From IMG/VR virus record IMGVR_UViG_3300045963_000139: 60,289 nucleotides of DNA. One strand, written 5' to 3'. Positions within the stretch are counted from its first letter, which is position 1, and each line of letters begins with the position of its first letter. Below, piece after piece: positions 821-34,554 of the stretch. A program made the position numbers and the translations under genes. This stretch comes from a virus. The notes beneath the pieces are model-generated. The model was not told the origin of the DNA. It saw nothing but the letters and a program-made list of their open reading frames with translations, and did no database searches.

Positions 821-1538
821 GCTCAGTGTCCTTGGGCTATGAGATGGGGGGAGTGTAACCCGGTACATCGCCTTTCGGCGAGCACCGCTTTGCAGGTCCT
901 TTTTTATTCTGAAAAATTTTGAAAGATGTTTTGAGGGGGCGGGGGTGATTTTTCACTGAGTAGATTTACTCACGGCATAGCGCGGCGGGAATACTTGACT
1001 AATTTAGTCGGGTATTGGTTTTTAGGGACGGTGTGTGTGAGGGGGGTAAATACATCGCGAGGGGGCCCCCCTTGGCCATGTGGGTGGGGGTACTCTCGTT
1101 TTGCCATAGGTGGAAGGGGCATGGAATACAGCTAAGTCCCCGACCCGTTCGAGTATGGTGGTACGGCCGCGCTAAGCATAGGTGCGTCTGTTTGTAGCCG
1201 AGGAACGTCTGCACGGGGAGGGTGGCATTAGTCATCGAAGCGTGTGGTATCAAGGGTGCATAGGTCGGCCGGTAGTGCGACAGTGCCTGTACCCTGAGAG
1301 TGCACGGAAAACCCCTATGTGCATGAAGGCCCAGCGAAGTGTGACAGGCTAGCTGGCCGTGGACTGCAACGTAACGCAGTGGACGATCTGGGTCCGAATA
1401 GCGCAGGTATAGGTGCACCAAAGGGCGTGCATAACGGGGACCGTGGACCATAACACCCAAAAGCGAAAATTCCGATAGTACATTGCATGCAGTGTGCTAT
1501 CTGAGCATGTCGCTCGATAACTTTTAAAGGTGATTCAA
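821..1538. promoter_or_regulatory. ORF-free divergent control region between the leftward packaging arm and the rightward early arm
   Basis: No ORF with an RBS or plausible composition. The plus strand is G-rich with G-runs. There is a GGGGGCCCCC palindrome at 1061-1070 and four ATAGGT(G/C) copies at 1106, 1178, 1260 and 1409. Confidence 0.6.
952..964. repeat. 13-bp inverted-repeat motif copy (ttcact g agtaga), consensus TTCACT-N-AGTGAA
   Basis: Read directly. The left arm is perfect and the right arm matches 4 of 6. Confidence 0.5.
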
Positions 1539-2072
1539 ATGGAAAAAACACAAATACTCAAGGCCATCGGTTCGATTGGCAAAGCCAGCGCTAAGCTGAC
1601 CAAAGACGTGCAAGCGTGCGCCGTCGAATGCGTCATTCATGCGGTGTTGCATGGTGATGTGACACTGGCTGACCAGTTGGTTGATGCACTGGGCAAGCAG
1701 GGCCGTAAATCGAGTTTGCGGGCTTGGTTCGAGATCAACGGTTGCATGTTCATTGCAAAGGGCAAGAACGTGTTTTCATTCGACAAGACACATAAGCTGG
1801 GCAAGCAGGATACTCCTGAGCTGCGTGAGCGTCTAATGGCAAAGCCATGGGAAGATGCAATCCCCGAACCCGCTGCGATCAGCGTGCTTGAGATCAGCGC
1901 GAAGTTCGACAAGTTCATGGATACGCTGACCAAGCAGGCAACGGAGGTTGCGAATGCGGGCGGTGTGGTGCACGGCAAGGCCTTGCTTGAACACATGGCC
2001 AAAGCAGCGGCTGAGTTTCACGCTCGGGCTATCCTGAGCGAAAAGTTCGATCTGGTCGAAGAGAAGGAATAA
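1539..2072 (+). CDS. Hypothetical early protein, first gene of the rightward arm
   Basis: ORF 1530-2072. ATG 1539 lies 8 nt after AAGG and is preferred over GTG 1530. A strong terminator follows immediately. Confidence 0.8.
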   Translation: MEKTQILKAIGSIGKASAKLTKDVQACAVECVIHAVLHGDVTLADQLVDALGKQGRKSSLRAWFEINGCMFIAKGKNVFSFDKTHKLGKQDTPELRERLMAKPWEDAIPEPAAISVLEISAKFDKFMDTLTKQATEVANAGGVVHGKALLEHMAKAAAEFHARAILSEKFDLVEEKE

Positions 2073-2100
2073 GAGAAAGGGCTTCGGCCCTTTTCTTTTC
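2073..2100 (+). terminator. Rho-independent terminator
   Basis: aaagggc-ttcg-gcccttt hairpin (2076-2093) followed by tcttttc. Confidence 0.8.
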
Positions 2101-2135
2101 CGCGCAGCACTGGTCAACCCTGACAGACGCAACTT

Positions 2136-2372
2136 ATGTCATACCCAATCAACCGTGGCACAAAGCTGCCACCTAAGCGCGTTCACTCAGTGAATGTCGG
2201 CAACGCCAACCCATCCAACCTTGAGGCTATCTACGCGGGCGGTGACCCATGGGAAGCCGGTCGTACGTTCGGATGCGGTAACCCCAAGACTACAGGCAGC
2301 ACCGCAGGTGCTCGGGTCATAGTGTCGCGCCGCAATGTGTCCAAATTCACGGTCGCGGGGACTGCGAAGTAG
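2136..2372 (+). CDS. Hypothetical protein, weak call
   Basis: 78-aa ORF with no clear RBS and low-complexity G/N/A-rich sequence. It contains a perfect copy of the 13-bp IR motif. Confidence 0.35.
   Translation: MSYPINRGTKLPPKRVHSVNVGNANPSNLEAIYAGGDPWEAGRTFGCGNPKTTGSTAGARVIVSRRNVSKFTVAGTAK
2182..2194. repeat. 13-bp inverted-repeat motif, perfect copy ttcact c agtgaa
   Basis: Read directly. The 6-bp arms are exact reverse complements around one central base. Confidence 0.7.
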
Positions 2373-2373
2373 C

Positions 2374-2439
2374 TCGCTAAGTGACTTTTCAGGTTCACTC
2401 AGTGAGTTACTGAGTGACTTGGTTTACTCACTGAGTGAA
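2374..2439. repeat. Cluster of four 13-bp IR motif copies (2374-2386, 2394-2406, 2406-2418, 2427-2439)
   Basis: Sequence reads ctcgctaagtgac / ttcactcagtgag / gttactgagtgac / ctcactgagtgaa. Copies 2 and 3 abut and share one base. Confidence 0.7.
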
Positions 2440-2499
2440 TCCTATAGTCACTAGACGATTTTTGGGTGCCTTCTCGCGAGTCCAATCACTCCAAACCCA

Positions 2500-2560
2500 A
2501 TGAAATCAAGGCTTTGTTCTATATTGAGTACAAATATACAATAAGTAGTAGTAAAAAGCC
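2500..2560. other. Most AT-rich segment noticed by eye, candidate DNA-unwinding element
   Basis: Sequence tgaaatcaaggctttgttctatattgagtacaaatatacaataagtagtagtaaaaagcc, flanked by ctcgcgag and tctcgcgaga palindromes (2473-2480, 2564-2573) and by IR motif copies. Confidence 0.4.
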
Positions 2561-2609
2561 TCCTCTCGCGAGAGCGTGTTCGTGTGTTGGCGTACGTGGC
2601 GCGCGTGAA

Positions 2610-2622
2610 GTCACTAAGTAAC
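2610..2622. repeat. 13-bp IR motif copy gtcact a agtaac
   Basis: Read directly. It abuts the candidate -35 of the promoter below. Confidence 0.55.
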
Positions 2623-2623
2623 T

Positions 2624-2654
2624 TTATACGCAAAAAAAAACACACGCGTATAAT
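2624..2654 (+). promoter_or_regulatory. Candidate sigma70-type promoter for the 2763 operon
   Basis: Perfect TATAAT at 2649-2654. The best -35 is ttatac at 2624-2629 with a long 19-nt spacer. About 110 nt upstream of the 2763 start. Confidence 0.3.
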
Positions 2655-2762
2655 CCCTCACGATTCCCCCCTGAGCCTCCGGCATACCATCTAGTTGTCT
2701 TGATACCCGGAAACCCGCATGGATGCTCAGTTCTATTAAGCTCAACATAAGAGAGGATTTCT

Positions 2763-3209
2763 ATGGCCCTTACCATTTCATGCCCTGTGTCAGCCCAAAT
2801 GGTGCTGCGCGACCTCATATCCACACATCCGCCTCACTCAGTGGAAGCCTTGACTCGCACGTTTTTGGCAGACATACACATCACTGAGCAGAAAGTGCGC
2901 GAGCTTGCGCACACAAAGCGCATCACGTTGAGTGCAGTTGTGCGTGGTCTGATGTGCAACAAGTACCCGGAACTGAAGCAACATTGGCCACTCAGTAAGC
3001 AAACGCCTGCACAAATTGAAGGTATTGCCAAGCGTAGTCGCAGCCCGGACGGCGCAGAACTCAAGCGCGCATTGGAGTTACTGAGTGGGTTACTGAGTGA
3101 CCGGCACAACATGCGTACACACAACGCAGCACGTACATTTTTGGCCAAGCATGGCATCGCTGCGCCCGACTGGCGCGAAGAGTATTACAAGCAACCTAAA
3201 GGAGAATGA
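2763..3209 (+). CDS. Hypothetical protein, candidate DNA-binding or initiator protein
   Basis: 148-aa ORF with RBS gagagga 6 nt upstream. An HTH-like stretch reads ITEQKVRELAHTKRITLSAVVRGL. Its own coding sequence carries five IR motif copies. Confidence 0.6.
   Translation: MALTISCPVSAQMVLRDLISTHPPHSVEALTRTFLADIHITEQKVRELAHTKRITLSAVVRGLMCNKYPELKQHWPLSKQTPAQIEGIAKRSRSPDGAELKRALELLSGLLSDRHNMRTHNAARTFLAKHGIAAPDWREEYYKQPKGE
2833..2845. repeat. 13-bp IR motif copy ctcact c agtgga
   Basis: Read directly. Confidence 0.5.
2987..2999. repeat. 13-bp IR motif copy gccact c agtaag
   Basis: Read directly. Degenerate copy. Confidence 0.4.
3077..3101. repeat. Two abutting 13-bp IR motif copies (gttact g agtggg, gttact g agtgac)
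   Basis: Read directly. Same head-to-tail arrangement with a 12-bp step as at 2394-2418. Confidence 0.65.
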
Positions 3210-3211
3210 GC

Positions 3212-3376
3212 ATGTTCAATTGCTACAAGGTATTCGTTAATGGTCGTCTGTACGCCATCGTACACACCGAGAGCGCAGCGAAAGGACTGTCCTTTATGCT
3301 GTTCGAGAGCGATGGTGGTCAACGCGAAGAAGTGCGCATCGAAGGCGCATATATCCCCGGTGGCGTGGGGTTCTAG
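3212..3376 (+). CDS. Hypothetical small protein (54 aa), not in the ORF track
   Basis: Hand translation: MFNCYKVFVNGRLYAIVHTESAAKGLSFMLFESDGGQREEVRIEGAYIPGGVGF*. RBS aaaggaga lies 6 nt upstream. More protein-like than the overlapping S/R-rich 3240-3479 ORF. Confidence 0.5.
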   Translation: MFNCYKVFVNGRLYAIVHTESAAKGLSFMLFESDGGQREEVRIEGAYIPGGVGF

Positions 3377-3459
3377 CACGCGCAGCACTAGTCAGCCATC
3401 GCGTACGCAAAAAAACGGGGAGCCTGACCCCCTTAACAGGCGCAACTCAAGGAGCTACC

Positions 3460-3932: not shown

Positions 3933-4173
3933 CAAAGAACTGCTCATGCGCTACCGCGCGTTGCACCAGCAGATCGACGGCATGGGCAAGGACTTGCTCA
4001 AGCTCATGCGCCACCCGGACAGCACACAGGAACAGATACTGCGTGGCCGGGACGCATACTTCCACTCATATGCCATGTGGGTGGAGGCGCGCATGATACT
4101 GCAGGAGAAACACCCACCACACCGCCGCTTCCTGCAGCCTGAGTTACCTTGGAACAAACCGGAGGACCTATGA
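3925..4173 (+). CDS. Hypothetical protein
   Basis: 82-aa ORF with RBS gggag 6 nt upstream. Confidence 0.7.
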   Translation: MINKELLMRYRALHQQIDGMGKDLLKLMRHPDSTQEQILRGRDAYFHSYAMWVEARMILQEKHPPHRRFLQPELPWNKPEDL

Positions 4174-4415
4174 ACATGCGCAAGGTGCGCCGCCTGCGGT
4201 CGCGGCGTTGGGACAGCGTGCACAAGAGCTGGAATGCCGTGCTGGATGGTGGGTCCATGTGGCCTATCCGTCACACCAAACCGTGCAAGTCGTATAGCGC
4301 ATGGTGCAGTGACTGCAACGCAGTCAGGTTCATATCGGACCACAACCGATTCCCTCACAACGTGGATGAGTTCTACGCGTTCGAGGATTACGTTCAAATA
4401 GGAGAGCAACCATGA
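4170..4415 (+). CDS. Hypothetical protein (Cys-containing)
   Basis: ORF 4149-4415 trimmed to ATG 4170. RBS ggagga and ATGA overlap with the upstream stop. Contains CKSYSAWCSDC. Confidence 0.7.
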   Translation: MNMRKVRRLRSRRWDSVHKSWNAVLDGGSMWPIRHTKPCKSYSAWCSDCNAVRFISDHNRFPHNVDEFYAFEDYVQIGEQP

Positions 4416-5601: not shown

Positions 5602-6618
5602 ATGAAATACTCAGAAGTTAAACAATCGGTCGTCGCCCAGTTCAGCCAAGATCGCCCCGACGCCAACCAGACCGTGTTCGCTATCATGGGCCAGCCCGGT
5701 GGCGGCAAGTCAGCGTGTGCCCGTGACGCATTCAACGAGCTGGGCTTTATCCAAGGCGAGACACTGTTCGAGCTGACACTGTCCTCGCGTGACCCGGTCG
5801 ATCTGCTGGGCACACCTAACAACATCGGCGACTTCACCCGCTGGGTGCCGCCTGAGATGTTCTGGAAGATGCGCAAGGGCACAGGACGCGTAGCACTCTT
5901 GCTCGAAGAGTTCAGCGATGCACAACTGCCCATGTTCAACGCGGCATGCCGCATCATCTACGACCGCTTTGCCGGTGACATGGCTCTGTCCGACCATCTC
6001 CACATCGTGGCCACTGGCAACCGCACCGAAGACAAGTCTGGTGCCATGCGTGTTCCATCCAAGTTCGCAGGGCGCACGCGTCGTCTGGACTACACCGAGA
6101 ATCTGGACGAGTGGATTGCGTATGCACAGGACATGGACTTTCCCATCGAGCTGATTCAGTACCATCGCTTCATGAAGGGCGCAGCACTGGTCGACTTTGA
6201 CCCGAACCGCTACGCCAACGCAACGCCGCGTACATGGGAAGATGTTGCACGCATGCCGCGCACACTGCCAAAGCATATCGAGCGTGACAACGTGGCAGGC
6301 TCTGTTGGCCAAGGCCGTGCCATCGAGTACTGTACGTTCAAGGACCTGTTCGATGACTTGCCTAACATCGACACACTCATCGCCAACCCCACGACAGCGG
6401 CTATTCCCGCCAAGCTCGATGTGCGCTTTGCAGTCCTCGGAGCCCTTGCCCGGGCATCCACGGCGGACAACTTCGAGGCGGTGTGCACATACACCAACCG
6501 CTTCCAGCCTGAGATGCGCGTCATGTGCATCAAGGACGCGATCAAGGTCGAGCCCAAGATCAAGCGTACCCGTGCGTTCCAGACGTGGGCTGCCGAGAAT
6601 GCAGACGTTCTCATATAG
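5602..6618 (+). CDS. MoxR/CbbQ-type AAA+ ATPase
   Basis: Walker A GQPGGGKS, Walker B ALLLEEF, sensor-like VATGN. 338 aa. RBS aaggaa. Confidence 0.85.
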   Translation: MKYSEVKQSVVAQFSQDRPDANQTVFAIMGQPGGGKSACARDAFNELGFIQGETLFELTLSSRDPVDLLGTPNNIGDFTRWVPPEMFWKMRKGTGRVALLLEEFSDAQLPMFNAACRIIYDRFAGDMALSDHLHIVATGNRTEDKSGAMRVPSKFAGRTRRLDYTENLDEWIAYAQDMDFPIELIQYHRFMKGAALVDFDPNRYANATPRTWEDVARMPRTLPKHIERDNVAGSVGQGRAIEYCTFKDLFDDLPNIDTLIANPTTAAIPAKLDVRFAVLGALARASTADNFEAVCTYTNRFQPEMRVMCIKDAIKVEPKIKRTRAFQTWAAENADVLI

Positions 6619-8975: not shown

Positions 8976-10083
8976 ACTCAAGGTCTTTGACTTCAACGTC
9001 AGCAAGGCCAAGACGCAGATCGTTCTGCAGCATCCGTTCTGGGCGGTCATCCTGCTCAAGCGCGAAGTCATATACGACTACAACGTGCCCACAGCCAGCA
9101 TCAACCGGCAAGGCCAGATCAAAGTCAACCCACGCTGGGCCAAAGACTTTACTGTGGGTAACCTGCAGTTTCTGCTGTGCCATGAGGTCGGTCACGAACT
9201 CTTCGACCACATCAACCGGCGCGGCCACCGCAAACCCGGGCGCTGGAATCGTGCAGGTGATGCAGTCATCAACGACACACTGATTCAATGCAAGGTCGGC
9301 GACTTTATCGACGGTGGCATCAACATGCCCGGGTCCATGGACCAGACCGCTGACCATATATACGACGGCTTCGGTGACGATGACGACGATAACCCGGGCG
9401 GTATCGGCGGTGACATCGACGAGTCCGGTGAGCCTCTGACTCCCGAGCAGATCGAAGAGCATACCCATGAGCTGCAGAACGAGATCGCTCAAGCAGCGCA
9501 GGCAGCCAAGATGCAGGGCAAGATGCCCAGTGTGCTGGAGAAGCTGGTGGCCCAGATACTTGCGGTCAAGACGCCATGGTATGAAATCCTTGAGCGCCAC
9601 ATGGTCAAGTTCATCCAGTCAGGCTACACGTGGGCTCGGCCGAACCGTCGCTACAGCGGCGCGGGTACTTACCTGCCCAGCACTGGTCAGGCGCAAACCA
9701 TGGGCACCATCGTGCTGGAAGTCGATGTGTCGGGCTCAGTGACCAAGAAGGAGATGAGCTACTACGCGGGCCACTTCGCGCGTATCGTGGAGATGTGCAA
9801 CCCCGAGCGCGTGCACGTCATCTACGTGGATACACGGGTGCAGAAGCACGTTGTGTTCGAGCAGGGCGAAGAGGTATCGCTGGAGTATGACGGCTGCGGC
9901 GGCACGGACATGACAGCGGGCTTTCGCTGGTGCGCGGCTGAGAACATCACCCCCGAGGTATTTGTCTGCCTGACCGATGGATACACCGGCTTTGGCACCG
10001 ACCCGGGCTACCCGGTTGTGTGGTGCATCAGCTCCGACAAAGTTGCATCGCACGGAGAGACAATTCACTTTGATATGGAATAA
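8926..10083 (+). CDS. Protein with an N-terminal putative metallopeptidase domain and a C-terminal VWA domain
   Basis: HExxH motif LLCHEVGHELFDH, acidic linker GDDDDDNPGGIGGDIDESGE, MIDAS-type motif VLEVDVSGSV. GTG start with RBS gaggt. Confidence 0.8.
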   Translation: MTQVLPTHSTNVLTASELKVFDFNVSKAKTQIVLQHPFWAVILLKREVIYDYNVPTASINRQGQIKVNPRWAKDFTVGNLQFLLCHEVGHELFDHINRRGHRKPGRWNRAGDAVINDTLIQCKVGDFIDGGINMPGSMDQTADHIYDGFGDDDDDNPGGIGGDIDESGEPLTPEQIEEHTHELQNEIAQAAQAAKMQGKMPSVLEKLVAQILAVKTPWYEILERHMVKFIQSGYTWARPNRRYSGAGTYLPSTGQAQTMGTIVLEVDVSGSVTKKEMSYYAGHFARIVEMCNPERVHVIYVDTRVQKHVVFEQGEEVSLEYDGCGGTDMTAGFRWCAAENITPEVFVCLTDGYTGFGTDPGYPVVWCISSDKVASHGETIHFDME

Positions 10084-11137: not shown

Positions 11138-11286
11138 AGTACTTACTCATCGTGCTCATGCTTGCTGGCTGCAGCACTGGTCAACCGGTCGCGCGGCTTC
11201 GCATCAAAGACTACATCGTAATGCAAGAGTTCACGGTGTGCTCAGCCGCTGACGAAACCAAGACGATTGTGTGGAGTTGCAAATGA
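11134..11286 (+). CDS. Small predicted lipoprotein (50 aa), not in the ORF track
   Basis: Hand translation: MKYLLIVLMLAGCSTGQPVARLRIKDYIVMQEFTVCSAADETKTIVWSCK*. Signal peptide plus canonical lipobox LAGC. ATGA overlaps at both ends. Confidence 0.6.
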   Translation: MKYLLIVLMLAGCSTGQPVARLRIKDYIVMQEFTVCSAADETKTIVWSCK

Positions 11287-13125: not shown

Positions 13126-13949
13126 TCAAAAATGTATTCGATCATCCAGAACATAACTGGAAGTGGACGCATCTTGAGATGGCGTTCATCAACAACCGGA
13201 CGCAAGCGCACCATGACTACACCCGCGCAGTTATCAGTGAGCGTGATGCGCTGAAGGCTGAATTGAAATCTCACTGCGCTTGCAAGTTTGATGGCGACAC
13301 CAACACCGAGCAATGCAAGCTGCACGGCGCATGGTGCGACACCTTGCATGAACAAGCGGACTATCGTAGGGAGCGTGACCTTGCTATTCAGCTTGGCAAA
13401 TCATTGGAAGAACAGCGTGACTCGCTACGCAAAGAACTCGCAGAACTAAAAGAAGCGGCATCCATGCAACAGAACAACGGTGCTGAACTCTTGGCACTAC
13501 GCAAAGAACTTGCAGAACTGCGGGAGGCCGAGCAAGTGGGGTTCATCACACCGCTCATGGAGCAGCAGATGTTCGATGACTGGTGCCCATACAAGGGCAG
13601 TCCAGACCCGCGAACTGTTTGGGCCGCAGCAATTGATTCTGTCAATGGACTGTTGCTTGATGCGGAGCCAAAGTCCGAGCCAGTGCAGGAGCCTGTGGCT
13701 TGGATGGGGTACTCGCCAACTAAAGGCAATGGCTACAAGGTGTTTCTGAATAAGCACTTGGCAGATGCTTACTCTATGGACGTAACCCCACTCTACGCCG
13801 CACCCCAAGACGGTCTACGCAAGGCAGCACAGATGGCGCTGGAGGCTATTGAGTTTGTACTGTCGGCTCATGGTGAACAGTTAACCAGTGCGTTTGAGGG
13901 TTGCCAAAACGCGATCTTGGAACTACGCAAGGAGTTAGGCCATGGTTAA
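13122..13949 (+). CDS. Hypothetical coiled-coil protein
   Basis: ATGA overlap. Internal duplicated LRKELAEL(K/R)EA. Confidence 0.7.
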   Translation: MIKNVFDHPEHNWKWTHLEMAFINNRTQAHHDYTRAVISERDALKAELKSHCACKFDGDTNTEQCKLHGAWCDTLHEQADYRRERDLAIQLGKSLEEQRDSLRKELAELKEAASMQQNNGAELLALRKELAELREAEQVGFITPLMEQQMFDDWCPYKGSPDPRTVWAAAIDSVNGLLLDAEPKSEPVQEPVAWMGYSPTKGNGYKVFLNKHLADAYSMDVTPLYAAPQDGLRKAAQMALEAIEFVLSAHGEQLTSAFEGCQNAILELRKELGHG

Positions 13950-14217
13950 GGCTGCGATCTCGCTTGAGCGGTATACCAAATGCGTGCGTGCGGTGTTTGA
14001 CACACTGTCCGCGTCCGACGATGGCATGACCGCGTACGACATTGCCAAGATTACAGGGTATCCACGTAGTACGGTGAACATCGTGGTGGAGGATAATCTG
14101 CTGTTCTACGTTGACCGCTGGAAACGCTCACGCGTTGGCGTACCCACCCGTATCTTCATGGCATCCAAGATAGAGCGTTTTGAAGATTGCCCACGACCGG
14201 ATGATATGAAAATATGA
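13942..14217 (+). CDS. Putative winged-helix DNA-binding protein
   Basis: HTH-like MTAYDIAKITGYPRSTVNIVV. 91 aa. Confidence 0.5.
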   Translation: MVKAAISLERYTKCVRAVFDTLSASDDGMTAYDIAKITGYPRSTVNIVVEDNLLFYVDRWKRSRVGVPTRIFMASKIERFEDCPRPDDMKI

Positions 14218-26505: not shown

Positions 26506-26533
26506 GCCCCCGGCTTACCCCGGGGGCTTTTTT
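26506..26533 (+). terminator. Rho-independent terminator at the convergence point of the two arms
   Basis: gcccccgg-(cttacc)-ccgggggc hairpin followed by ttttttc. The T-tract overlaps the stop codon of the leftward giant gene. Confidence 0.8.
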
Positions 26534-29500
26534 CATTTTGGAAGCTGATCGATCGCGCGACCGGTTTGCTTTGGCTGGTACTGCACACCGCCCGGGGTCG
26601 TGAACATCTGACGCTTGAGCTGTTCTATCGGCGTCTTCAGGATGTCGGCCAGAGGGGTCGGCCGGTAGCCGCGCTCGACCATTTCCTTGCGTAGATCGTT
26701 CATCTCCTTGATCGCCGTGGACGTGCCCGCTGAACCGCTGCGCGCGTCGTTGTTGTAGCGCTCCTTCAGAATCTCCAGACGGTTCTTGAAGTCTTCCGTG
26801 GACTTAATCATGGCACCGGTTTCCGACTGCATCATGGCCTTGCTGGATGGCTCGAACCCGAAGGCTTCCAGCAGCGCTTCGCCAGCGTTGATGTCCATCA
26901 GCTTGTCGTTCTTGGTGTTGGTTACACCGCCAAGTGTTGGGGCAAAGCCGCCTTCACGCGCACCCTTCATGATGTTGGCAATACCTTGGGGCATCAACCC
27001 TTCGAGGCCCTTGTAATAGTTGCCCACGAACATGTGGTGCAGCGACTGCGCCGCGCGGCCAACGAGCCCGCCGAACGGGCCTGCGGTAACTTGGCCAATG
27101 GCATCTTGCACGCTCTTGCGATCTGTCGGGTCCACGTCGGTGTAAGGCGCAATACCCAGCATGTCGCCGTAGCCGACCTTCTTGGACAGGTCCACACCCA
27201 GCAGTCCGGGCACGCCGCGAAGCAGCAGTTGCGCAATGTGGCGATCACCAACGGCCTTTTCGATCTTGGTTTCCCAGTCTTGGCCATCCACGCCGGTCAG
27301 CCACTTCTGCAGGGTCTGAGACGCGGCGCTGAACGTACCGAACCCGGGCATTCCCAGCGCGCCGCCCAGCACACCGACGTGGGCCAAGGTGTACACCAAG
27401 TGGCGTACAGCGATCGAGCGCTCGGCCGGGTCAGCGTTCTTCAGGTTGCCCATCATTTTGACCATCTGAGTGAGCTGCACCAACTGGAACTTGCGGAACT
27501 GCAATGCCACCTTGCCAAAGCCGTTGTTGAACACCCGGGGCGCATTGGCGCGGCTGTGGTCACCGTGAGTCTCAGCCACCACGTCACCCGCGTAGTGCAG
27601 AGCGCGCTCAGCATCTCCATGCTTGGCAAACTCCAGCCGGTAAGCGGCTGCAGCGCTGGCCAACCGGTTCAAAGATTCCATCTTCAACGAGGCTTGGGCA
27701 ACGCGATCGGCTGCCGCTTGCGCTGCGCGAGTCGCCATGTTCTTGGGCCGCAGCTCCATGGAGCCGTACTCAGTGTTCATGCCGATGTCCAGACGACCCA
27801 GCTCCAGCAAACGCTGCATGGGTGCCCGCACGTCAGCAGGCATGTCTGACACCTTCAGGGTGTCGAGCAAACCAGTTTTGCCAAGGATGTCACCGATCTC
27901 TTTGTATGCCTTGAAGAACTCACTGGTTGCCTTACCGTACCCATGGTGCGCTTGCAAGTAGGGCAGCGTCATCGTCCACGGCTGCATCAAGTTGCCAATG
28001 AAGTGCGCTGGGCTTGTTGCGATCTGCCAGAGGGCAGTTGCCTTGGTGATCTTGTTGGCCCAAGGGGTTGGCACCGCGTTGACACTACCTTCGTGGCGTA
28101 GCATGAACTCGTCGTATATGTGCAACTTTGTCGTGCGATCTTCACCCTCACCGCTGTCAGCCTGCTTGTAGGCCTTCTTCAACTGGGTAAGCATGGCATC
28201 GTTGTGCGTGATGCCAGCGATAAAGTGCGCGTCACCCTTGGCTTGCTGCTTGAACGAGCCCACCATATCCATGGTGCCGTGAACACCCATGCGGCGCATC
28301 TCGGCTTTGCGGGACGACGACTGACTCAGCGCATCCAACCACATATTGGTCAGCAAGCGGGCCGAGGTTTTGTACTTCATCCGGTCAGCTTCAGCCGGGG
28401 CTTCTTGGCTTAGCTTTTCCAGTTGGTGACGCAGCCGCGACATACCGGCCAGCACACCCTTGCCGCCGTTCAGTTCGGTTTGCCAGTCTTCCTTTGGCTT
28501 GTAGTAGGTGTGGTCCTTCGTGGCGGGAAAGCCCGCATCGCGCATGTTCTGACGCAACGCCTTGGACTCTTGCTCACTCTGGGCTTCCGACACAAGGTAG
28601 TGCTGCGGGTCCGTCACCAGATCGTACAGCGCCTTCTTGTCTTCGCGGGTTGCGCCGTCGCGGCTTGCACGCTCTTCAGCACGCAGGTAAGCGTCCGACT
28701 TGCCCACGACAACCCAGTCACCGTGGCGGCGCGCGGGCACGTAGGGTTTACCCTCGCCAATCTGCATGAGGGTGTTGTACTTCTTCATGAAGCCGTTCTT
28801 CTCGGCCAGAATCTCTTCGCGCTCTGCGCCGGTCGTACCCTTGAGCATGTCGTCGTACAGCTCGGCAGCCTTTTTCTCGATGACGGCTTTCTTCTCTTTG
28901 AGAATTTCATCGCCGTGGGCGAACATGGCCTTGGCCACCGACTGGGCTCGATCGGATAGCTGGTCGAACATCACCTTGGCTTTGCCGGTCGCCTTGGGTC
29001 CGTAGCCCCACTCACCGTTCAGGGTGCTGTGCTGCAGGAACGCGCTCAAACCCGTCTTCTCTTCCTGTGTGAACTTGCGCACCGGCTCGATCGCATTGAA
29101 CGCCATCTTCTGGAAGTGACCGGCCAGCGCATCACGGGCTTCGCGTAGCGTGTCGTAGTGCTCCAGTGCAGTGAGCCCCTTGGCCACGCCTCGCGCCACC
29201 AGATCGCGGGTAAATACCACGTGGTTCAGCGCATCCCCGGCCCAGCGGTTCAGACGGTCGGTGATCGTGCGCGCGGGCTCTTGCAGATGGTCGGGCAGCC
29301 GGGAGATGTTAGCGGCAACGGTTTTGCCAAACTTCACGCCATGCAAGTCTTGCTCGACGTCGCCGCCCGGATGGGATGCAACACGCAGGATGTTCCTGTC
29401 ATTGAAAATGATGGTGTTGTGCGTACGCTCGCGCTTGACTATTTGGTAATCGCTCGGCTTAGCTTGGTTAAGCTCTTCCAAACGCATTCTTGCGTCAGAG

Positions 29501-32500
29501 ACCGAAGCGCTATTGGGGCCGTCAGATGCCTCCAGATGTTTTATGTCTTTGCGCAGCCCGGCCATTGCAATCTTGCGAGCGGGTTCAAACTGGATACCGC
29601 TCATTAGTCGCTGCATGAGAAAATAGTCCGGGCGGTCATTACCCACATAATTCACCGCCGAAATATCCGGCCCACGACTTTGGCTGTCGTAGAACTTGGT
29701 GCCCTTCACGCCCAGCGAGTTCAGATATTCAGCAGCGGCTCGTTTGGCGTGCCCATGGTCAGGGGCGTCGTCAAATATGCCGTCTTCGATAGCGCGAGCC
29801 AGCAGCCCGTCTTTACCAAAGTGCGAGTCTGGGCTACCAACAAAATCGTGGCCAGTGATTTCATCACGGTCAATGTTTGCTTGGTCCAGCATGTCGTCAA
29901 GGTAAGACGTCACTTCCCCGGGTAGCTTCTTGTCCATCTTGTCCAGCAACTCATTCAGCACATTGCGCACGTGCTCATGCTGCTTGGCTACGGGCAAGTC
30001 TGACATCATCATGGCGTTGTCGGGGACCGTGTGGTCTACGCGCATCAAATTGCCAATGCTGCGCTGATTGAAATTCAGCCGTTCAATTTCCCCGGTGTCG
30101 TGGTTCACGACGTCGATGTAATCAACTCCGGCTTCCAGCAGTTTCTTTGCGAGTTTGCCGGGGTTAAAGTCACCCAACTGCGCGTCTTTTGGAATCAACT
30201 CTGAGCGGTTTACGGGGTGCAAGATTTCATCCTTGGGGTACCAGTCGGCGTATTTTTCCAACTGGTCAGTGACGGATTTTTTCCACTTGGCCATCACGTC
30301 GCGCACGTGGTAATCCGAGCCGATGCCTTGGCGCTTTGCTATGTACGCCGCGCCCCAGCCGTAGGCTTGCGCACCCTCGCCGGTACCAACAAACTTACTG
30401 TTGAACTTGCGAAAAGCTGCAGCGGTGCCATGCCAGTTGCCTGCCACTTCCAGCCGCGCTGCGCCGTAGGCCATATTGACCATATCCTCGGCGGTCAACT
30501 TGTTGATGTCCTTGCCCCGCATAACCCGGCGGATGGCATCTTTGAACGCTGCGTAAATCTGGCGAATGAGGCTGGCAAACCGGCCGTCGTACCCTTTAAG
30601 TGCAGTCGGTTCCACACCGCGCTTCAACGCTACTTGTACAAAATACGCTACTGCTTCGTTGGCTTCTTGGTGGGGCTTTGTCCCCGCCATAAACACGTGG
30701 GATAGGGCTTCCCGCGCGATTTCTGACTCTTTGGAGCCATCAGTCCGAGCTGCCCACTCCTTGATAGCTTCATGGATGCGGTCAATCTTCTCTTTGCCCA
30801 GAATGCGGTCCAGCCCCAAGTGAGAGCCTACTTCGTGGAGAAATGCCCCCTTGCCGTCACCCCGAGAAATGCGGTCGGCAATCATAACGACACGGCCATC
30901 TTTGGCCCACCCAAACGGGCTGCCCTTGCTAAACGCGTAGCCAAGGTCTTGCAAATCTGTCAGGTCGGTGGCGGTGTCCACGATCTTGATGTGGCGTGGA
31001 AGTTCCTCAACGTTCATCCATGCGGCTATCTCGTCGTGCAGTTCTTTACCAGACTTGTATGGGTCCGTGACCGCATCGCCTTTGCCGTACGCAACGTCAT
31101 CCGAGTTACCGGCCAACTTATCGTCGCGAACAAGTGCTTCACCGTCGTCAGGCGCATCCAGACCGTCACGCTTGTCGTACAGGGCTTGGCGCTCGGCTTC
31201 CAGCTTGGTAACTTGCTTGGCGTTACCTGCCTCTTCGGCATCGTTGATCTTGTCGTTCAGAGCTTCGATCTGGTCGTCGATTGAAACTTCATCGGCGGCT
31301 TCCTTTTCTTTCTGCTCTTTGTCCGCGTCCTTCTTGACGGACTCATCCAGACGCTTCTTGTACACGCGCTCCAACGCATGTATCTGGTCGGTCAGCTCGT
31401 CGAATAGCTTGGTGTTGCCAGCTTTCTGAGCCTTGTTGCGCTCCATTTCAAGGCGGCTGCCTTCTTTCAGGATTTCCAAATCTGTCGAGTGGATGTCGAT
31501 GCCGCGCGTCTCGGCGCGACCTTGTTTCTTGGCCTTCTCTTCGGCGTCCTTCTTTTCAGCCGCAGCGGCGTCGGCGGCGATCGCCTTGGATTGCTGGCCT
31601 TCCGCTTCGGCTTCAGCTTTGGTCTTGACGCCCATGTTGTCCGCGCCATGCACTTGCATGCCACCACCGGCCATCAGTTCCTGCTTTTCACCAGCCGACA
31701 AGTTGTCATCCATGGCAGACGACACGCCACCGTCTTGGGCGATGGCCGCTTCGGTCTTGCGCTGCACCGCTTTACCTTGGGCAATGTCCAAGGCTTCCTT
31801 CATGGCACGGGCTTCGTCGGGTGTGATCTTGCCATCGTTCATCGCAGCGTCGATGCGTTCGGCCTTGATCTTGTTGATGTACTTCTGCGGCGTGGTGTGG
31901 TGCACACCCTCACGTGTGGCCATAGCTTGCCAGTTTTCACCATTCGCGGCTGCATGCAGGCGTGTACCGGCCAGCTCACCGAGGGCGGCGATGAAGCGCT
32001 CCACAGGTGGAATCTTGGTTGTCTCAGCGGCCGTCTGCTTCGCTTCGGCAGCACGCTGTTCAGGGGTCTTGGCAGCTTCGGCAGCGGCTTCTTCCTCTTG
32101 GCGTTTGCGCGACTTCTTGGCGTCTTCAGCCGTTTCGATGACCGGGGCCGCGTGTTCACCTACCTGCTCGATGGGTACGCCTTGGTTGACCGCAGCCTGC
32201 GCCGGGGCCAGTTCTTCGGCTTTCACTACGCGCTTCGGAGCTTCGCCGGTCTTGGGTAGCTCACCACGTGCGCCCATGGGGAACAGGTGCTTCTGGCCCG
32301 TCTCTTTGCCAAGGTTCGGGCGCATGTTGTCCGTCTGCTCGGGCGCGGCGGGCTCTTCCGGCAGGTGCCACTCAGGATGTGGAACACCGCTTGGGTGTTC
32401 CAAGTGGAAGTCGGGGCGCGGCGCTTCGGGCGGGCGCACGGGTGCCGTGGGTATCGGGGCAACGGCCGGTTTCTGGCCGACCTCGACAGGGGCGAGCTTG

Positions 32501-34554
32501 CCCGTGTTTTCGTGGCCGGTCGCAGTGCGCGAAGCTACTGGAGCCTTGGGAACACCGGCATTTCCGCCAGCCACAGGCGGCTGCACGCTGGGTGCAGGCT
32601 CTCCGGTGCCAGTACGAACTCCCCCGGATTCGCCAGAGACAGGTACTCCAGCTCCCACGCTTCCTGCTGGCTTATTACCCCCAGCTCCACCCACTCCTGC
32701 ATTTCCGGCTGCAGCCAATCCAGATGTGCCGTCATTTGAGCCTTTCAGTCGGTCAATTTCCAGTTGTGCTGCGCCTAGTTTACCGGACTTAAGCGCTTTA
32801 ACTAAAGTCTCGGCTTCCGCACTTTCGAGGTCAATACCGGCAGCAACAGCTTGCTCAGCCAGCGGGCGCACTGAGGCTTGCTTTTTCTTGCCGATACCGA
32901 TCGCTTTGAGAGTGTCGTCCAACTTCAGACCTGACAGCTCTTGCTCGGGCGTTACGACCGGCGCAACGGGAGGCGGTGGGGGCGGTGTCTCGACCGCAGG
33001 AGGCGGTGCAGTTTCTGCTGCACGCTGAGCCAAGAAACGCTGCTGGTTCGCATCTCCCAGCAACTTGTCGGAACGGACTTGCTGCCCTTCCATCCACTTT
33101 TGCGCGGGTGCGGCACCAACCAATGCGCCAACTTCTGGTTGCACAGCTTTGGCAGCGTCTTCCATTTGCGTTGCGCGTAGCAAATCAACTGGCTGAGTAG
33201 GGTCGCTCAAGTGTCGGCCCAGTTGCGCGCGACGGCCCGAGTCCTGCAACTGGTGGTAACCAGCAAGCGGAGCCATCATGGCACCCATGTACAAACCGGC
33301 TTGCGCACCGCCCAGAGCGGCGTCGCCCACATCTTCTGGAGCTCCACCGGCCGCGTTATTGTTGGCTGCAGACAGCGCGCCTTGAGCGGCCATACCTGTG
33401 GCTTGCGTTGCTTGGTTGACGCCTTCGTTGGTCGCAAAGCGCTTCATGAACTGCGGGTTCGTAACCATCTGGGCAGCTTGGTCGGCCGTCAGCTCTCCAC
33501 CGGACACTGCTTGGCGCAAACGTTGAATACCGGCGTAGGCACCCCCGTTCGCCATAATGCGACCACCGGCAAAGCCGAGGGCGGCTTGCGTGCCGCCGCT
33601 GATAAAGAACTGCCGCCAGCCAGCTTGATTGGCTTGGTCCTGTGGAACGCCTTGCTTAATCAGGGACTCGTACGTGTTCTGTGCGTCAGACGCGCCAAAT
33701 AAGGGAGCCACGACGCCCACATCCATGGCAGCGGCGACTTCCGGCATACCGGCTGCGGTGAGCCCCACGTTGGCAGCGGCGATCGGAACGGCAAGTCCAG
33801 CGGAACGCGCGTTGTTGATAAATCCAGACGCAACGGTACCGTGGCCGAGGGTGTCGGCTGGCTGGTCAGTACCGAGAAACCGGTCTGCTGCGCCGCCAGC
33901 ATTTTGCAAAGACTGACCAATCCCGGGAGCACCGGCCCACGTTGCTGCTTTACCGAGGGTATCGAGCCCACCACCGGCTACGCCGCCGAGGAACTGTTTG
34001 CCGGTTTCGTACGCCGCATGGCCCGCGCCACGGTCAATACTTGACAGGTACTGCTGCACATCAGACGCGTTGACCATCCGAAAACCGGGTTTTAGGTTTG
34101 TCGGCGAAACACTCTGGTGCCCGTTGGTTTGCAATAGGTTGGCAGCCATCGTGGGGTTATCCCCCATCGGCACAACCGTGTCGCCCACTTGAAGCTCGTT
34201 ATTCGGCCCGATGCCGTAGGTCGGCTGCGTGGATGGCGTTGTCGGCTGCTGCCCATACTGGGCTTGCATCTGCTGCAGCATCTGTGCATTGTGCTGAGCG
34301 ATCTGTGTTGCGTAGTCAGGCGGCGCGTCGGCTGTCGGGCCGGGAGTGCCGGGGCTCACCGTATTCCAGAACTGAGGCCCCATGGCTTGGTTGTTCTGCT
34401 GCGCCAGCGGAGTGAGGCCAGCGCTGGTAGGCTGCGGGCCGCGAGGTATCGAAGGGTTCTGCGGAACGCCAAGGATGGCGTTGTTTGCACTCCCGCCACT
34501 CAGGTTACTGGATGCGAAAGCGTTTGAATCCTTCGCGGCGGGGTTCATGGCCAT
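26533..34554 (-). CDS. Giant multidomain virion-associated (polyvalent-type) protein, 2673 aa
   Basis: Uninterrupted 8-kb ORF, the last gene of the structural arm, with RBS aaggac. Carries low-complexity G/A/Q, poly-Pro and K/E coiled-coil segments, an HEVGSH motif (30820-30837), the module NWHGTAAAFRKFNSKFVGTGEGAQAYGWG...FYDSQSRG...IIFNDRNILRV (about 29395-30438), and a helical C-terminal region. Confidence 0.85.
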   Translation of the reverse strand: MAMNPAAKDSNAFASSNLSGGSANNAILGVPQNPSIPRGPQPTSAGLTPLAQQNNQAMGPQFWNTVSPGTPGPTADAPPDYATQIAQHNAQMLQQMQAQYGQQPTTPSTQPTYGIGPNNELQVGDTVVPMGDNPTMAANLLQTNGHQSVSPTNLKPGFRMVNASDVQQYLSSIDRGAGHAAYETGKQFLGGVAGGGLDTLGKAATWAGAPGIGQSLQNAGGAADRFLGTDQPADTLGHGTVASGFINNARSAGLAVPIAAANVGLTAAGMPEVAAAMDVGVVAPLFGASDAQNTYESLIKQGVPQDQANQAGWRQFFISGGTQAALGFAGGRIMANGGAYAGIQRLRQAVSGGELTADQAAQMVTNPQFMKRFATNEGVNQATQATGMAAQGALSAANNNAAGGAPEDVGDAALGGAQAGLYMGAMMAPLAGYHQLQDSGRRAQLGRHLSDPTQPVDLLRATQMEDAAKAVQPEVGALVGAAPAQKWMEGQQVRSDKLLGDANQQRFLAQRAAETAPPPAVETPPPPPPVAPVVTPEQELSGLKLDDTLKAIGIGKKKQASVRPLAEQAVAAGIDLESAEAETLVKALKSGKLGAAQLEIDRLKGSNDGTSGLAAAGNAGVGGAGGNKPAGSVGAGVPVSGESGGVRTGTGEPAPSVQPPVAGGNAGVPKAPVASRTATGHENTGKLAPVEVGQKPAVAPIPTAPVRPPEAPRPDFHLEHPSGVPHPEWHLPEEPAAPEQTDNMRPNLGKETGQKHLFPMGARGELPKTGEAPKRVVKAEELAPAQAAVNQGVPIEQVGEHAAPVIETAEDAKKSRKRQEEEAAAEAAKTPEQRAAEAKQTAAETTKIPPVERFIAALGELAGTRLHAAANGENWQAMATREGVHHTTPQKYINKIKAERIDAAMNDGKITPDEARAMKEALDIAQGKAVQRKTEAAIAQDGGVSSAMDDNLSAGEKQELMAGGGMQVHGADNMGVKTKAEAEAEGQQSKAIAADAAAAEKKDAEEKAKKQGRAETRGIDIHSTDLEILKEGSRLEMERNKAQKAGNTKLFDELTDQIHALERVYKKRLDESVKKDADKEQKEKEAADEVSIDDQIEALNDKINDAEEAGNAKQVTKLEAERQALYDKRDGLDAPDDGEALVRDDKLAGNSDDVAYGKGDAVTDPYKSGKELHDEIAAWMNVEELPRHIKIVDTATDLTDLQDLGYAFSKGSPFGWAKDGRVVMIADRISRGDGKGAFLHEVGSHLGLDRILGKEKIDRIHEAIKEWAARTDGSKESEIAREALSHVFMAGTKPHQEANEAVAYFVQVALKRGVEPTALKGYDGRFASLIRQIYAAFKDAIRRVMRGKDINKLTAEDMVNMAYGAARLEVAGNWHGTAAAFRKFNSKFVGTGEGAQAYGWGAAYIAKRQGIGSDYHVRDVMAKWKKSVTDQLEKYADWYPKDEILHPVNRSELIPKDAQLGDFNPGKLAKKLLEAGVDYIDVVNHDTGEIERLNFNQRSIGNLMRVDHTVPDNAMMMSDLPVAKQHEHVRNVLNELLDKMDKKLPGEVTSYLDDMLDQANIDRDEITGHDFVGSPDSHFGKDGLLARAIEDGIFDDAPDHGHAKRAAAEYLNSLGVKGTKFYDSQSRGPDISAVNYVGNDRPDYFLMQRLMSGIQFEPARKIAMAGLRKDIKHLEASDGPNSASVSDARMRLEELNQAKPSDYQIVKRERTHNTIIFNDRNILRVASHPGGDVEQDLHGVKFGKTVAANISRLPDHLQEPARTITDRLNRWAGDALNHVVFTRDLVARGVAKGLTALEHYDTLREARDALAGHFQKMAFNAIEPVRKFTQEEKTGLSAFLQHSTLNGEWGYGPKATGKAKVMFDQLSDRAQSVAKAMFAHGDEILKEKKAVIEKKAAELYDDMLKGTTGAEREEILAEKNGFMKKYNTLMQIGEGKPYVPARRHGDWVVVGKSDAYLRAEERASRDGATREDKKALYDLVTDPQHYLVSEAQSEQESKALRQNMRDAGFPATKDHTYYKPKEDWQTELNGGKGVLAGMSRLRHQLEKLSQEAPAEADRMKYKTSARLLTNMWLDALSQSSSRKAEMRRMGVHGTMDMVGSFKQQAKGDAHFIAGITHNDAMLTQLKKAYKQADSGEGEDRTTKLHIYDEFMLRHEGSVNAVPTPWANKITKATALWQIATSPAHFIGNLMQPWTMTLPYLQAHHGYGKATSEFFKAYKEIGDILGKTGLLDTLKVSDMPADVRAPMQRLLELGRLDIGMNTEYGSMELRPKNMATRAAQAAADRVAQASLKMESLNRLASAAAAYRLEFAKHGDAERALHYAGDVVAETHGDHSRANAPRVFNNGFGKVALQFRKFQLVQLTQMVKMMGNLKNADPAERSIAVRHLVYTLAHVGVLGGALGMPGFGTFSAASQTLQKWLTGVDGQDWETKIEKAVGDRHIAQLLLRGVPGLLGVDLSKKVGYGDMLGIAPYTDVDPTDRKSVQDAIGQVTAGPFGGLVGRAAQSLHHMFVGNYYKGLEGLMPQGIANIMKGAREGGFAPTLGGVTNTKNDKLMDINAGEALLEAFGFEPSSKAMMQSETGAMIKSTEDFKNRLEILKERYNNDARSGSAGTSTAIKEMNDLRKEMVERGYRPTPLADILKTPIEQLKRQMFTTPGGVQYQPKQTGRAIDQLPK

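Follow-up and report, generated by a model that had tools for sequence, protein, structure and literature searches.

A clustered array of putative protein-binding palindromes brackets the most AT-rich segment of a 60-kb podovirus genome

Repeats that lie inside the gene of the initiator are the pattern of the lambdoid O gene and its ori. RHH operators typically have a 7-bp palindromic core repeated at 12-bp steps, and in the RHH arrays ParR-parC of R1, omega of pSM19035 and Arc/Mnt of P22 a short core is present in many copies, with abutting sites of about one helical turn. In phi29, several sites for the small phage protein p4 lie between divergent early and late units. We describe here a clustered array of inverted repeats in a stretch of viral DNA of 60,289 nucleotides, which was analysed at its whole length and is referred to as the window. 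The evidence supports the array as a functional set of putative protein-binding sites bracketing an AT-rich segment, a description common to origin and operator readings. The array would be the main cis-regulatory or origin hub of an undescribed clade of 60-kb podoviruses. This clade is known from metagenomes alone, mostly from lakes and streams.

A symmetrised PWM was trained solely on 29 intergenic sites from six type-A loci, and matches of at least 12 bits were accepted. Types A to E denote lineage-specific palindromes, and R-type denotes relatives that have a homologue of the 148-aa protein described below and no array. The PWM consensus is ATTCACTCAGTGAAT, in which ACT-N-AGT is invariant; the initial annotation had correctly seen a palindrome, but the consensus is nearer to (G/T)TYACT-N-AGTRA(C/A) than to the letters it gave, TTCACT-N-AGTGAA. 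The window holds 13 matches, of which 12 fall at 951-3102 (951, 2181, 2372, 2393, 2405, 2422, 2426, 2609, 2832, 2986, 3076 and 3088), which confirms the proposed cluster near the AT-rich segment; the sole match outside the array region is at 41800. An independent repeat search found the same families, among them a double-site module of 22 nt that occurs at 2397-2418 and 3080-3101, and the abutting pairs with a 12-bp step noted earlier are present at 2393/2405 and 3076/3088.

Window counts point the same way. CACTNAGTG has 6 copies against 1.04 expected, and YACTNAGTR has 13 against 2.43, a number that 0 of 100 shuffles reached; ten of these 13 copies fall at 954-3099. Against the 8.05 copies of the ACTNAGT core that a Markov-2 model predicts, 14 were observed, ten of them inside 2.2 kb (binomial scan P ~2e-10; simulated maximum, 5). 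The genome-wide scan suggested by the initial annotation gave a divided answer: the exact 13-mer with 3 mismatches allowed is not enriched (24 versus 19 expected), but the core and its clustering are, so that the signal resides in these. A stray core match that had been placed near 17746 is absent, and one exists at 27767. The central base is unconstrained and differs freely among orthologous sites, and position +/-4 is Y/R for each half independently, T..G and C..A combinations both being seen. This pattern fits a dimer that recognises duplex DNA and does not fit an RNA hairpin. The palindrome sites have no strand asymmetry and show the form of operators, being dyad-symmetric over about 13-17 bp with an unconstrained centre and a duplex-type recognition pattern; they resemble targets in double-stranded DNA of a dimeric protein encoded by the phage. 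The features of the region are as follows.

951 to 973, no strand: outpost site TTTCACTGAGTAGAT with adjoining half-site TTTACTCAC (PWM, 15.7 bits; repeat family D9)
2136 to 2372, plus strand: small conserved ORF of 78 aa, which precedes the array in every lineage
2181 to 2195, no strand: perfect site GTTCACTCAGTGAAT (21.7 bits), within the small conserved ORF, encoding V-H-S-V-N
2372 to 2440, no strand: upstream cluster of five PWM matches (2372, 2393, 2405, 2422, 2426)
2443 to 2455, no strand: half-site-like element TATAGTCACTAGA (alignment)
2491 to 2574, plus strand: most AT-rich segment, candidate early promoter P1 and 5' end of the leader (alignment, GC scan)
2609 to 2623, no strand: leader site AGTCACTAAGTAACT (20.4 bits), about 70 bp downstream of P1
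2763 to 3209, plus strand: 148-aa ORF of an orphan family, candidate cognate DNA-binding protein
2832 to 2846, no strand: in-gene site CCTCACTCAGTGGAA (12.8 bits), encoding P-H-S-V-E
2986 to 3000, no strand: in-gene site GGCCACTCAGTAAGC (15.9 bits), encoding W-P-L-S-K, in which Ser has the rare codon AGT
3076 to 3102, no strand: in-gene abutting pair AGTTACTGAGTGGGT / GGTTACTGAGTGACC (17.6 and 18.5 bits; repeat families D6 and I1)

On one side of the outpost the leftward late (terminase) operon starts, and on the other lies the early region. An equivalent of the perfect site at 2181 is present at the same position in relatives L003, L011 and L013. The upstream cluster begins where the small ORF ends in its stop codon, and the site centres of the cluster step by 21, 12 and 21 bp; the member originally given as 2374 is real but better placed at 2373-2385. 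In the same region seven sites are found in L007, spaced at 20-24 bp, and two to three in each of L003, L009, L011 and L013. The GTCACTAG portion of the half-site-like element is conserved solely in type-A relatives. The leader site has one counterpart each in L007 and L011 and two in L003.

Five sites had been placed within the 148-aa gene. Four are supported; the fifth, the one called 'weak' (2880-2892), stays under 8 bits and is explained by conserved T-E-Q codons. The four PWM matches of at least 12 bits in this gene compare with 0.02 expected from synonymous codon resampling, and six related genes of the family hold 17 sites where the same resampling predicts 0.20. In the homologous gene of L005 the type-B motif was observed twice (0.006 expected). 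Rare codons, TTA and AGT, are used in the pair at 3076..3102 for L-L-S-G-L-L-S-D, and the homologous position in L005 is occupied by that relative's own motif, GTATCTTTATTAGAC. Orthologues of site 2986 in L007, L009, L011 and L013 differ in the central base alone. Site 2832 is the least secure in-gene site, since in L007 it was lost via synonymous changes that keep the amino acids. As judged from these sequence comparisons, selection acts on the sites as DNA and the in-gene copies are maintained by rare codons, which makes the array a clean example of codon choice in a gene shaped by DNA-level selection.

Conservation among related phages, named as a check at the outset, was found: an array stands at the same place in six type-A loci. 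At the array position other relatives have palindromes of different sequence, namely GTATC-N5-GATAC in L005, the sole type-B relative (site GTATCCAAAAGATAC), GGTGTGTATACACACA in L028 and about eight other loci, a GAATATTC-type palindrome in L043/L044 and CACTA-N5-TAGTG in L056. That relatives keep the array but exchange the palindrome sequence indicates real protein-binding sites. Four of 6 type-A and all 6 type-C loci have a counterpart of the outpost, built on the locus's own motif, at 440-580 bp before the first early gene. The arrays of types C and E also contain short boxes of a second family, the TTATCCAA boxes of type C being replaced by TTAGACAA boxes in type E. One contig in the sample of relatives is near full length. 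No close relative was found in INPHARED, either by DNA or by the 148-aa protein, and a literature search on distant cultured relatives found nothing relevant.

Array and 148-aa gene do not always travel together. Types C, D and E have the array and lack the 148-aa homologue, and R-type relatives have the homologue and lack the array, no hidden array being recognisable in them. L002 has 86% identity in a neighbouring gene, yet is without an array, which points to mosaic exchange; the array-less L002 and L014 have the same terminase module. In the same slot, array-less relatives contain an RHH-looking gene with sigma-70-like promoters (ParD match below threshold, E=0.059), and this gene may be of RHH type by its sequence. 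In some array-less relatives the slot is instead taken by one 20-bp palindrome that overlies a TTGACA-17-TAAAGT promoter. Either content suggests that the slot is regulatory.

The AT-rich stretch reported beside the array was verified, the 60 bp from 2501 having the lowest GC content of the genome (28%), as were two CTCGCGAG palindromes, at 2473 and 2565. A conserved -10-like hexamer, TACAAT, at 2537-2542 is followed by a conserved hairpin, CTCTCGCGAGAG, at 2563-2574, whose arms co-vary between loci. From these elements we infer a candidate early promoter, P1, and a 5' leader at 2491..2574; the 18-mer GCGCAGCACTGGTCAACC is a candidate transcript start. The AT-rich block and leader are conserved in all A, B and R-type relatives, array-less ones included, and the arrays therefore look like add-ons around a conserved promoter. 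The conserved -10-like element lies between the two sets of sites. A TATAAT promoter had also been proposed beside the site at 2609-2623. This hexamer exists at 2649-2654 and its -35 position abuts site 2609, but it is specific to the window and unconserved in relatives, which weakens an operator argument built on it. Rfam covariance models gave no match in the window at the gathering threshold and a chance-level match (E=0.54) at a terminator at 2074-2101.

The product of the 148-aa ORF, for which the public gene call begins at M13 (position 2799), is the best local candidate for the binder. AlphaFold2 predicts a compact helical domain for its N-terminal 75 residues, with no strand by DSSP. 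No sequence match was found in Pfam, PHROG, NCBIfam or PDB, so the HTH-like segment first described in this product receives no backing from any family search. Foldseek searches of the 148-aa models against PDB and BFVD were without a significant match, the best PDB match being single-chain Arc (E=1.6, TM 0.51, not significant). The L005 homologue matches RHH family PF07704 at E=0.006, below the cut-off, and a Pfam scan of 22 family members yielded no RHH match at E<=1 and no consistent RHH or HTH family. A tandem RHH arising through internal duplication of the N-domain was considered, and hhalign found none. From these models and sub-significant hints the protein is possibly a small RHH-like binder. 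Three of its columns are type-A-specific (E47, R93 and S94). Two other proteins were rejected as specificity determinants, the product of the 78-aa small ORF (one type-A column) and the PHROG 1448 protein (none), whose similarity does not track motif type. A TerS-like protein gained no support in this role, being 59% identical to that of type-A L003 and 57% to that of type-B L005. With arrays lacking the gene in C, D and E and the gene lacking arrays in R-type relatives, the identity of the binder does not follow from synteny.

We tentatively favour an operator array that brackets the conserved AT-rich promoter and controls early transcription, with a rough probability of 45%, over origin iterons of the lambda kind. 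About five sites lie upstream of P1 (2181, 2372-2440) and about five downstream (2609, 2832, 2986, 3076-3102), and the outpost at 951 marks the junction with the divergent late operon. Once accumulated, a regulator would bind cooperatively at sites phased by 12 or about 21 bp and bridge both flanking sets, possibly with the outpost as well; P1 would then be enclosed in a repressive nucleoprotein complex, and the early transcription unit shut off or autoregulated. The likely regulator in this lineage would be the 148-aa protein, encoded by the first gene downstream of P1. We infer the promoter role of P1, repression by binding and the identity of the binder from the arrangement of these elements. 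The outpost recurs in types A and C, which suits a regulator of transcription and is something an origin would not need. However, twelve sites over 0.9 kb, several of them in coding sequence, are unusual for a simple operator; no site squarely overlaps a conserved -35 or -10, and a promoter consensus scan made no call in this region. A pseudo-dimeric single-chain RHH fold alone would also not explain an exact palindrome.

A replication origin of the lambda O or SPP1 G38P type is somewhat unlikely by comparison. In such an origin the palindromes would be iterons for a 148-aa replisome organiser and the AT-rich segment the unwinding element; the protein would recruit the phage primase-helicase (23478-26456), and its gene would hold part of its own origin. 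The sites flank the 60 bp of lowest GC in the genome and are regularly phased at 12 and 20-24 bp, in two specificity types (one of the two at a homologous position) rare codons preserve the copies that lie within the candidate initiator gene, and the second short-box family of types C and E gives an origin-like two-motif layout. The phage encodes a DNA polymerase, a helicase and a primase-helicase, with no recognised initiator. Retention of the AT-rich element and leader in array-less relatives, however, means that the element is not an array-dependent unwinding element or that replication starts elsewhere in those phages. Types C, D and E have arrays without the 148-aa gene, the 148-aa family lacks similarity to O, Rep or DnaA-type proteins, and outposts at the late-operon junction have no obvious role in an origin. 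The likeness to lambda ori drawn initially thus holds for the in-gene sites and their homologous placement in a relative, and falls short on the conserved promoter-like block, the outposts and the want of a known initiator family. A cluster of DnaA boxes (TTATCCACA-like) was rejected, only one 1-mismatch box occurring in 2100-3300; the short boxes of C and E differ between lineages and are therefore not host DnaA boxes. GC skew is dominated by gene orientation. We consider decidedly improbable another kind of cis-acting nucleoprotein site near the leading genome end, for pac/cosB-like TerS recognition, a pause in genome entry, or partition or condensation. Such a site would be bound by a protein from another part of the genome, such as the TerS-like 209-aa protein (239-868) or a weak HTH protein (13942-14217), and the persistence of arrays without the 148-aa gene makes this plausible. 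The terminase operon begins 1.3-2.3 kb from the array, and its TerS-like gene probably starts at 820, about 130 bp from the outpost; in Autographiviridae phages the left end is marked by the PHROG 1448 early gene. Weighing on the other side, similarity of the TerS-like protein fails to follow motif type, the main array has its centre at the promoter-like element and not at the terminase gene, and the close relatives L002 and L014 keep their terminase module without an array. No ParA/ParB-type match was found among about 55 predicted products, each searched against Pfam, PHROGs or both, with several small early ORFs outside the search. Very improbable, finally, are hairpins acting as single-stranded DNA or RNA, either as promoters of an N4-like virion RNA polymerase or as boxB-like sites for an antiterminator or other RNA-binding protein. 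All sites lie in early-transcribed DNA, every type can form a 5-bp stem with a loop of 3-5 nt, and a 2673-aa virion protein has 2000 N-terminal residues of unknown function; that protein was rejected as an N4-like polymerase, having no RNA polymerase family match or catalytic motif, and twelve symmetric copies with abutting pairs and in-ORF positions do not fit such promoters. RNA hairpins were rejected on the mixed C..A/T..G at +/-4, which breaks the stem in the RNA of either strand; the ACT/AGT core does not co-vary but is invariant, and stems range in strength from weak ones in types A and B to ones of 9-10 bp in type E.

Beyond the favoured operator reading, an unlikely extension is that the arrays are interchangeable specificity cassettes of uncultured, apparently virulent podoviruses. 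Each would pair an orphan binder, possibly single-chain and RHH-like, with about 10-12 cognate palindromes and would fold the first early unit, including a structured RNA of about 480 nt, into a switchable loop; on this view the swapping among types A to E would stem from co-infecting lytic phages competing with or excluding one another, which would amount to immunity-like behaviour without lysogeny. Some palindromes are written with rare codons in coding sequence, and one outpost lies 1.5-2 kb away. A precise 15-bp motif with natural specificity variants makes the question of the binder directly testable. If the 148-aa orphan is the binder it would define a new DNA-binding family, and if the array is an origin it would supply the missing initiator and origin for phages with their own replication enzymes.

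The array can be set beside four described arrangements. As in lambda ori within gene O and SPP1 oriL within gene 38, several dyad sites lie in the gene of a small early protein by an AT-rich stretch, and relatives change the sequence of the sites while keeping their place in the gene. The 148-aa protein, however, shows no detectable likeness to O or G38P. Of the roughly 12 sites, only 4 fall within the gene, where they spread over 270 bp; the others reach up to 600 bp upstream, with one 1.8 kb away. The AT-rich element is also retained in relatives that lack the array. With phi29 p4 the likeness is one of position, since the outpost at 951 and the main array would play the part of the sites between divergent units, but the site structure and protein differ, the span is much larger, and there is no sign that a late promoter is activated.

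The RHH arrays likewise have a 7-bp core, many copies and abutting sites of about one turn, and two sets of sites flank a putative promoter region as in parC. The present array differs in having exact 13-15 bp palindromes and not direct repeats of 7-11 bp, in running through coding sequence, in the sub-significant RHH membership of the 148-aa protein and in lacking a ParM/ParA-type partner among the products searched. The lambdoid OL/OR-cI systems and the stoperators of Cluster A mycobacteriophages are distinguished by lysogeny, no integrase or other lysogeny gene being present here among the products searched, and by sites at two operators or genome-wide and not within about 1 kb; in them, as in this clade, close phages share the same architecture and have different cognate sites.

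The early control region of the window carries about a dozen copies of a palindrome with an ACT-N-AGT core, which we favour, at a probability of roughly 0.45, as an operator array around a conserved early promoter. Assembled as a circle, the window represents a complete phage genome; an exact 127-bp overlap (bases 1-127 = 60163-60289) leaves a true length of 60,162 bp once removed, and the large-terminase gene spans the circular junction. The phage is podovirus-like, with a T7-type internal virion protein, portal/adaptor, family-A DNA polymerase, primase-helicase and a 2673-aa virion protein; deposited phages include no close relative. The main features are as follows.

1539 to 26456, + strand, early and replication genes
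1539-2072, first early gene, PHROG 1448, an early left-end gene in many Autographiviridae phages
2136-2372, + strand, small ORF of 78 aa
2763-3209, + strand, 148-aa gene
From 868 leftwards over the junction down to 26533, - strand, late genes
26533-34554, - strand, late protein of 2673 aa, with C-terminal 500 residues matching PHROG giant-virion-protein families

This layout places the array in the control region heading the early genes, beside the divergent late operon. One of the families matching the 2673-aa protein is annotated as DarB-like, the match being confined to those 500 residues, and the protein has no PDB match or RNA polymerase motif. Lysogeny genes were absent among the ~55 predicted products searched with Pfam or PHROGs, a set that takes in only part of the small early ORFs.

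In the window, CACTNAGTG occurs six times (1.0 expected) and YACTNAGTR 13 times (2.4 expected), with 10 of the 13 within 954-3099. A symmetrised position weight matrix (PWM), trained only on 29 intergenic sites from six related loci, gave the consensus ATTCACTCAGTGAAT, in which ACT-N-AGT is invariant, with Y/R at +/-4 and T/A at +/-5. It scored at least 12 bits at 951, 2181, 2372, 2393, 2405, 2422, 2426, 2609, 2832, 2986, 3076 and 3088, and beyond this early-region set at a single position, 41800. The same families were recovered independently by a repeat finder, along with a 22-nt double-site module flanking the AT-rich segment (2397-2418 and 3080-3101). That segment contains the lowest-GC 60 bp in the genome (2501-2560). 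The cluster of inverted repeats beside the most AT-rich DNA, proposed in the initial annotation, is borne out. The genome-wide scan it called for upheld the clustering but did not find the 7-bp palindromic core over-represented as a whole: ACTNAGT has 14 copies (8 expected), of which 10 fall inside 2.2 kb (simulated maximum 5; P about 2e-10), and outside the cluster the core is depleted if anything (4 vs 7.8 expected). Two of its entries are not upheld: the weak site at 2880, whose bases are simply the codons of a conserved T-E-Q, stays under 8 bits, and the stray core near 17746 is absent from the sequence.

The sites within the 148-aa gene are written with the rarest codons (Ser AGT, 6% of Ser codons; TTA, the rarest Leu codon). 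When synonymous codons were resampled 1000 times for unchanged protein sequences, 0.20 sites of at least 12 bits were expected in the six genes of loci sharing the window's motif (type A), with a maximum of 2; 17 were observed. Between orthologous in-gene sites the sole difference is the free central base, which comes third in a Leu codon. The homolog in L005, a locus with a different palindrome (type B), carries type-B sites at two places, scoring 17.5 and 17.4 bits (0.006 expected); one of them sits at the position homologous to the window pair at 3076-3102, so the site's place in the gene outlived a complete change of site sequence. Because the small upstream ORF also holds a site (2181), and type-C loci have sites inside unrelated small ORFs, the array is a regional feature of ~0.9 kb and not a property of one gene.

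Relatives were found through homologs of the PHROG 1448 gene and the 148-aa ORF. These gave ~50 loci, one in a MAG and the others on viral or metagenome contigs. Conservation of the sites in related phages, which the initial annotation had proposed to check, was confirmed in six loci.

Type A (L003, L007, L009, L011, L013, L019): same motif at the same places as in the window
Type B (L005): array at the same position, GTATC-N5-GATAC
Type C (L028 and about eight other loci): array at the same position, GGTGTGTATACACACA
Type D (L043, L044): array at the same position, GAATATTC-type
Type E (L056): array at the same position, CACTA-N5-TAGTG
No array: R-type L002, L006 and L014; also L058 and L059

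In L007, seven sites directly follow the small ORF at a spacing of 20-24 bp. A second, lineage-specific short box is interleaved with the long palindromes in type C (AATTATCCAA; L028 4838-5160) and type E (AATTAGACA; L056 5030-5390); these boxes occur in both orientations and also in tandem, and a small acidic ORF comes after them. Relative to identity of the neighbouring PHROG 1448 protein, array presence appears mosaic: the window protein shares 86% identity with its counterpart in array-less L002, 81% with type-A L003 and 80% with type-B L005. In array-less loci the slot holds either a lone 20-bp palindrome or an extra ribbon-helix-helix (RHH)-looking gene that comes with sigma-70-like promoters. 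The extra gene lies just upstream of the 148-aa homolog (L002 4544-4774; L014 2210-2437; L006 3536-4021), and we read its product as having an RHH-like N-terminus and an acidic tail, with a sub-threshold ParD match in L014 only (E=0.059). The perfect palindrome, AAAGTCTGCATGCAGACTTT (L058 888-907; L059 2503-2522), overlaps a TTGACA-17-TAAAGT promoter in L058; L059 has the same module inverted.

Alignment of the intergenic region across the A, B and R lineages defined a common backbone: the end of the small ORF, followed by the conserved block CAAACCCAATGAAATCAAGG; an AT-rich stretch in which a -10-like hexamer is conserved (TACAAT, 2537-2542 in the window); and a hairpin with arms co-varying among loci, a conserved leader of ~200 nt and the 148-aa gene. 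The hairpin lies directly 3' of the promoter-like element (window 2563-2574; L002 4311-4328; L009 about 2772-2790), and its arms differ while the stem is kept (CTCTCGCGAGAG, GCCTCCTC..GAGGC, GCCTC..GAGGC), which points to a conserved stem-loop at the leader RNA's 5' end. The palindromes occupy variable segments flanking this backbone, about five on its upstream side (2181, 2372-2440) and five on the downstream side (2609, 2832, 2986, 3076, 3088). At the late-operon junction, 4 of the 6 type-A loci and all 6 type-C loci have an outpost site, which lies 440-580 bp ahead of the first early gene and has its own motif in each type.

Other elements were noted in this region. The ~480-nt ORF-poor stretch from the late-operon start to the first early gene (1020-1535, + strand) is kept in relatives; RNAalifold predicted 67 pairs, of which 20 show compensatory double changes, and Rfam gave no match, making it a candidate large structured early RNA. 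At its start, a palindrome, GACTAATTTAGTC within cTTGACTAATTTAGTCggg (993-1012), is conserved in A, B and R relatives; it may serve as the early promoter or be an element close to the end of the genome. An 18-mer, GCGCAGCACTGGTCAACC, is present in five copies with up to three mismatches (0.11 expected), all on the + strand (2102-2119, 3380-3397, 6179-6196, 9675-9692, 11169-11186). In the window and relatives it lies directly 3' of terminators and precedes start codons by 17-60 nt. It may act as a promoter specific to the phage or as a processing signal, but a phage RNA polymerase gene was not found.

The invariant ACT/AGT core, which shows no co-variation, the independence of the half-sites at +/-4 and stem strengths differing widely among array types argue for recognition of the sites as duplex DNA by a symmetric dimer, rather than as RNA or single-strand hairpins. 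Since T..G and C..A combinations both occur at +/-4, neither strand's transcript would hold the stem; hairpin models are very improbable. N4-type hairpin promoters are further excluded by the absence of an RNA polymerase signature; DnaA boxes were likewise excluded as the identity of the sites. An operator array is favoured because the AT-rich element exists without arrays, because the slot in sister lineages holds classical repressor/operator cassettes, and because outpost sites mark the divergent late/early junction. The initial annotation had left origin or operator open, and a lambda-O-like replication origin is a close rival, if on balance unlikely: in-gene sites that persist through a specificity swap, regular phasing and a position on both sides of the most AT-rich DNA fit such an origin, but no initiator-like protein was found and array-less relatives exist. 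Other cis-acting roles seem distinctly less likely than either.

The 148-aa protein is a tentative candidate for the binder, somewhat short of even odds. It belongs to an orphan family: a set of 1.8 billion proteins contains 27 cluster representatives of it (50% identity), and the members fetched are all from this phage clade. Pfam, PHROG, NCBIfam and PDB sequence searches gave no match. In the AlphaFold2 model, residues 1-75 form a helical N-terminal domain predicted with confidence (pLDDT 83-90), and the C-terminal half is poorly defined. Compared with PDB structures, the N-domain matched best to a permuted single-chain Arc, though at E=1.6 and TM 0.51, and one homolog had a sub-threshold match to the RHH family PF07704 (E=0.006); these hints fail to recur across the family. 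Alone among three local conserved proteins it has type-A-specific residues (E47, R93, S94). Against its being the binder, arrays without the gene and the gene without arrays both occur. An 81-aa early protein (4170-4415, + strand) common to type-A and type-C phages, with a basic N-terminus, the conserved motif KPCKSYSxWCSDCNA...RFPH and no family match, may be a zinc-ribbon nucleic-acid-binding protein.

The type-specificity variants form an unusually clean, directly testable pair. The array could define a new DNA-binding family or, alternatively, supply the missing origin and initiator for this phage group. Arrays of dyad-symmetric, lineage-specific sites, some within coding sequence, are a known kind, represented by lambdoid ori/O, RHH operator or centromere arrays, and immunity-type operator swaps. 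New here are the motif, the phage clade and the orphan candidate binder.
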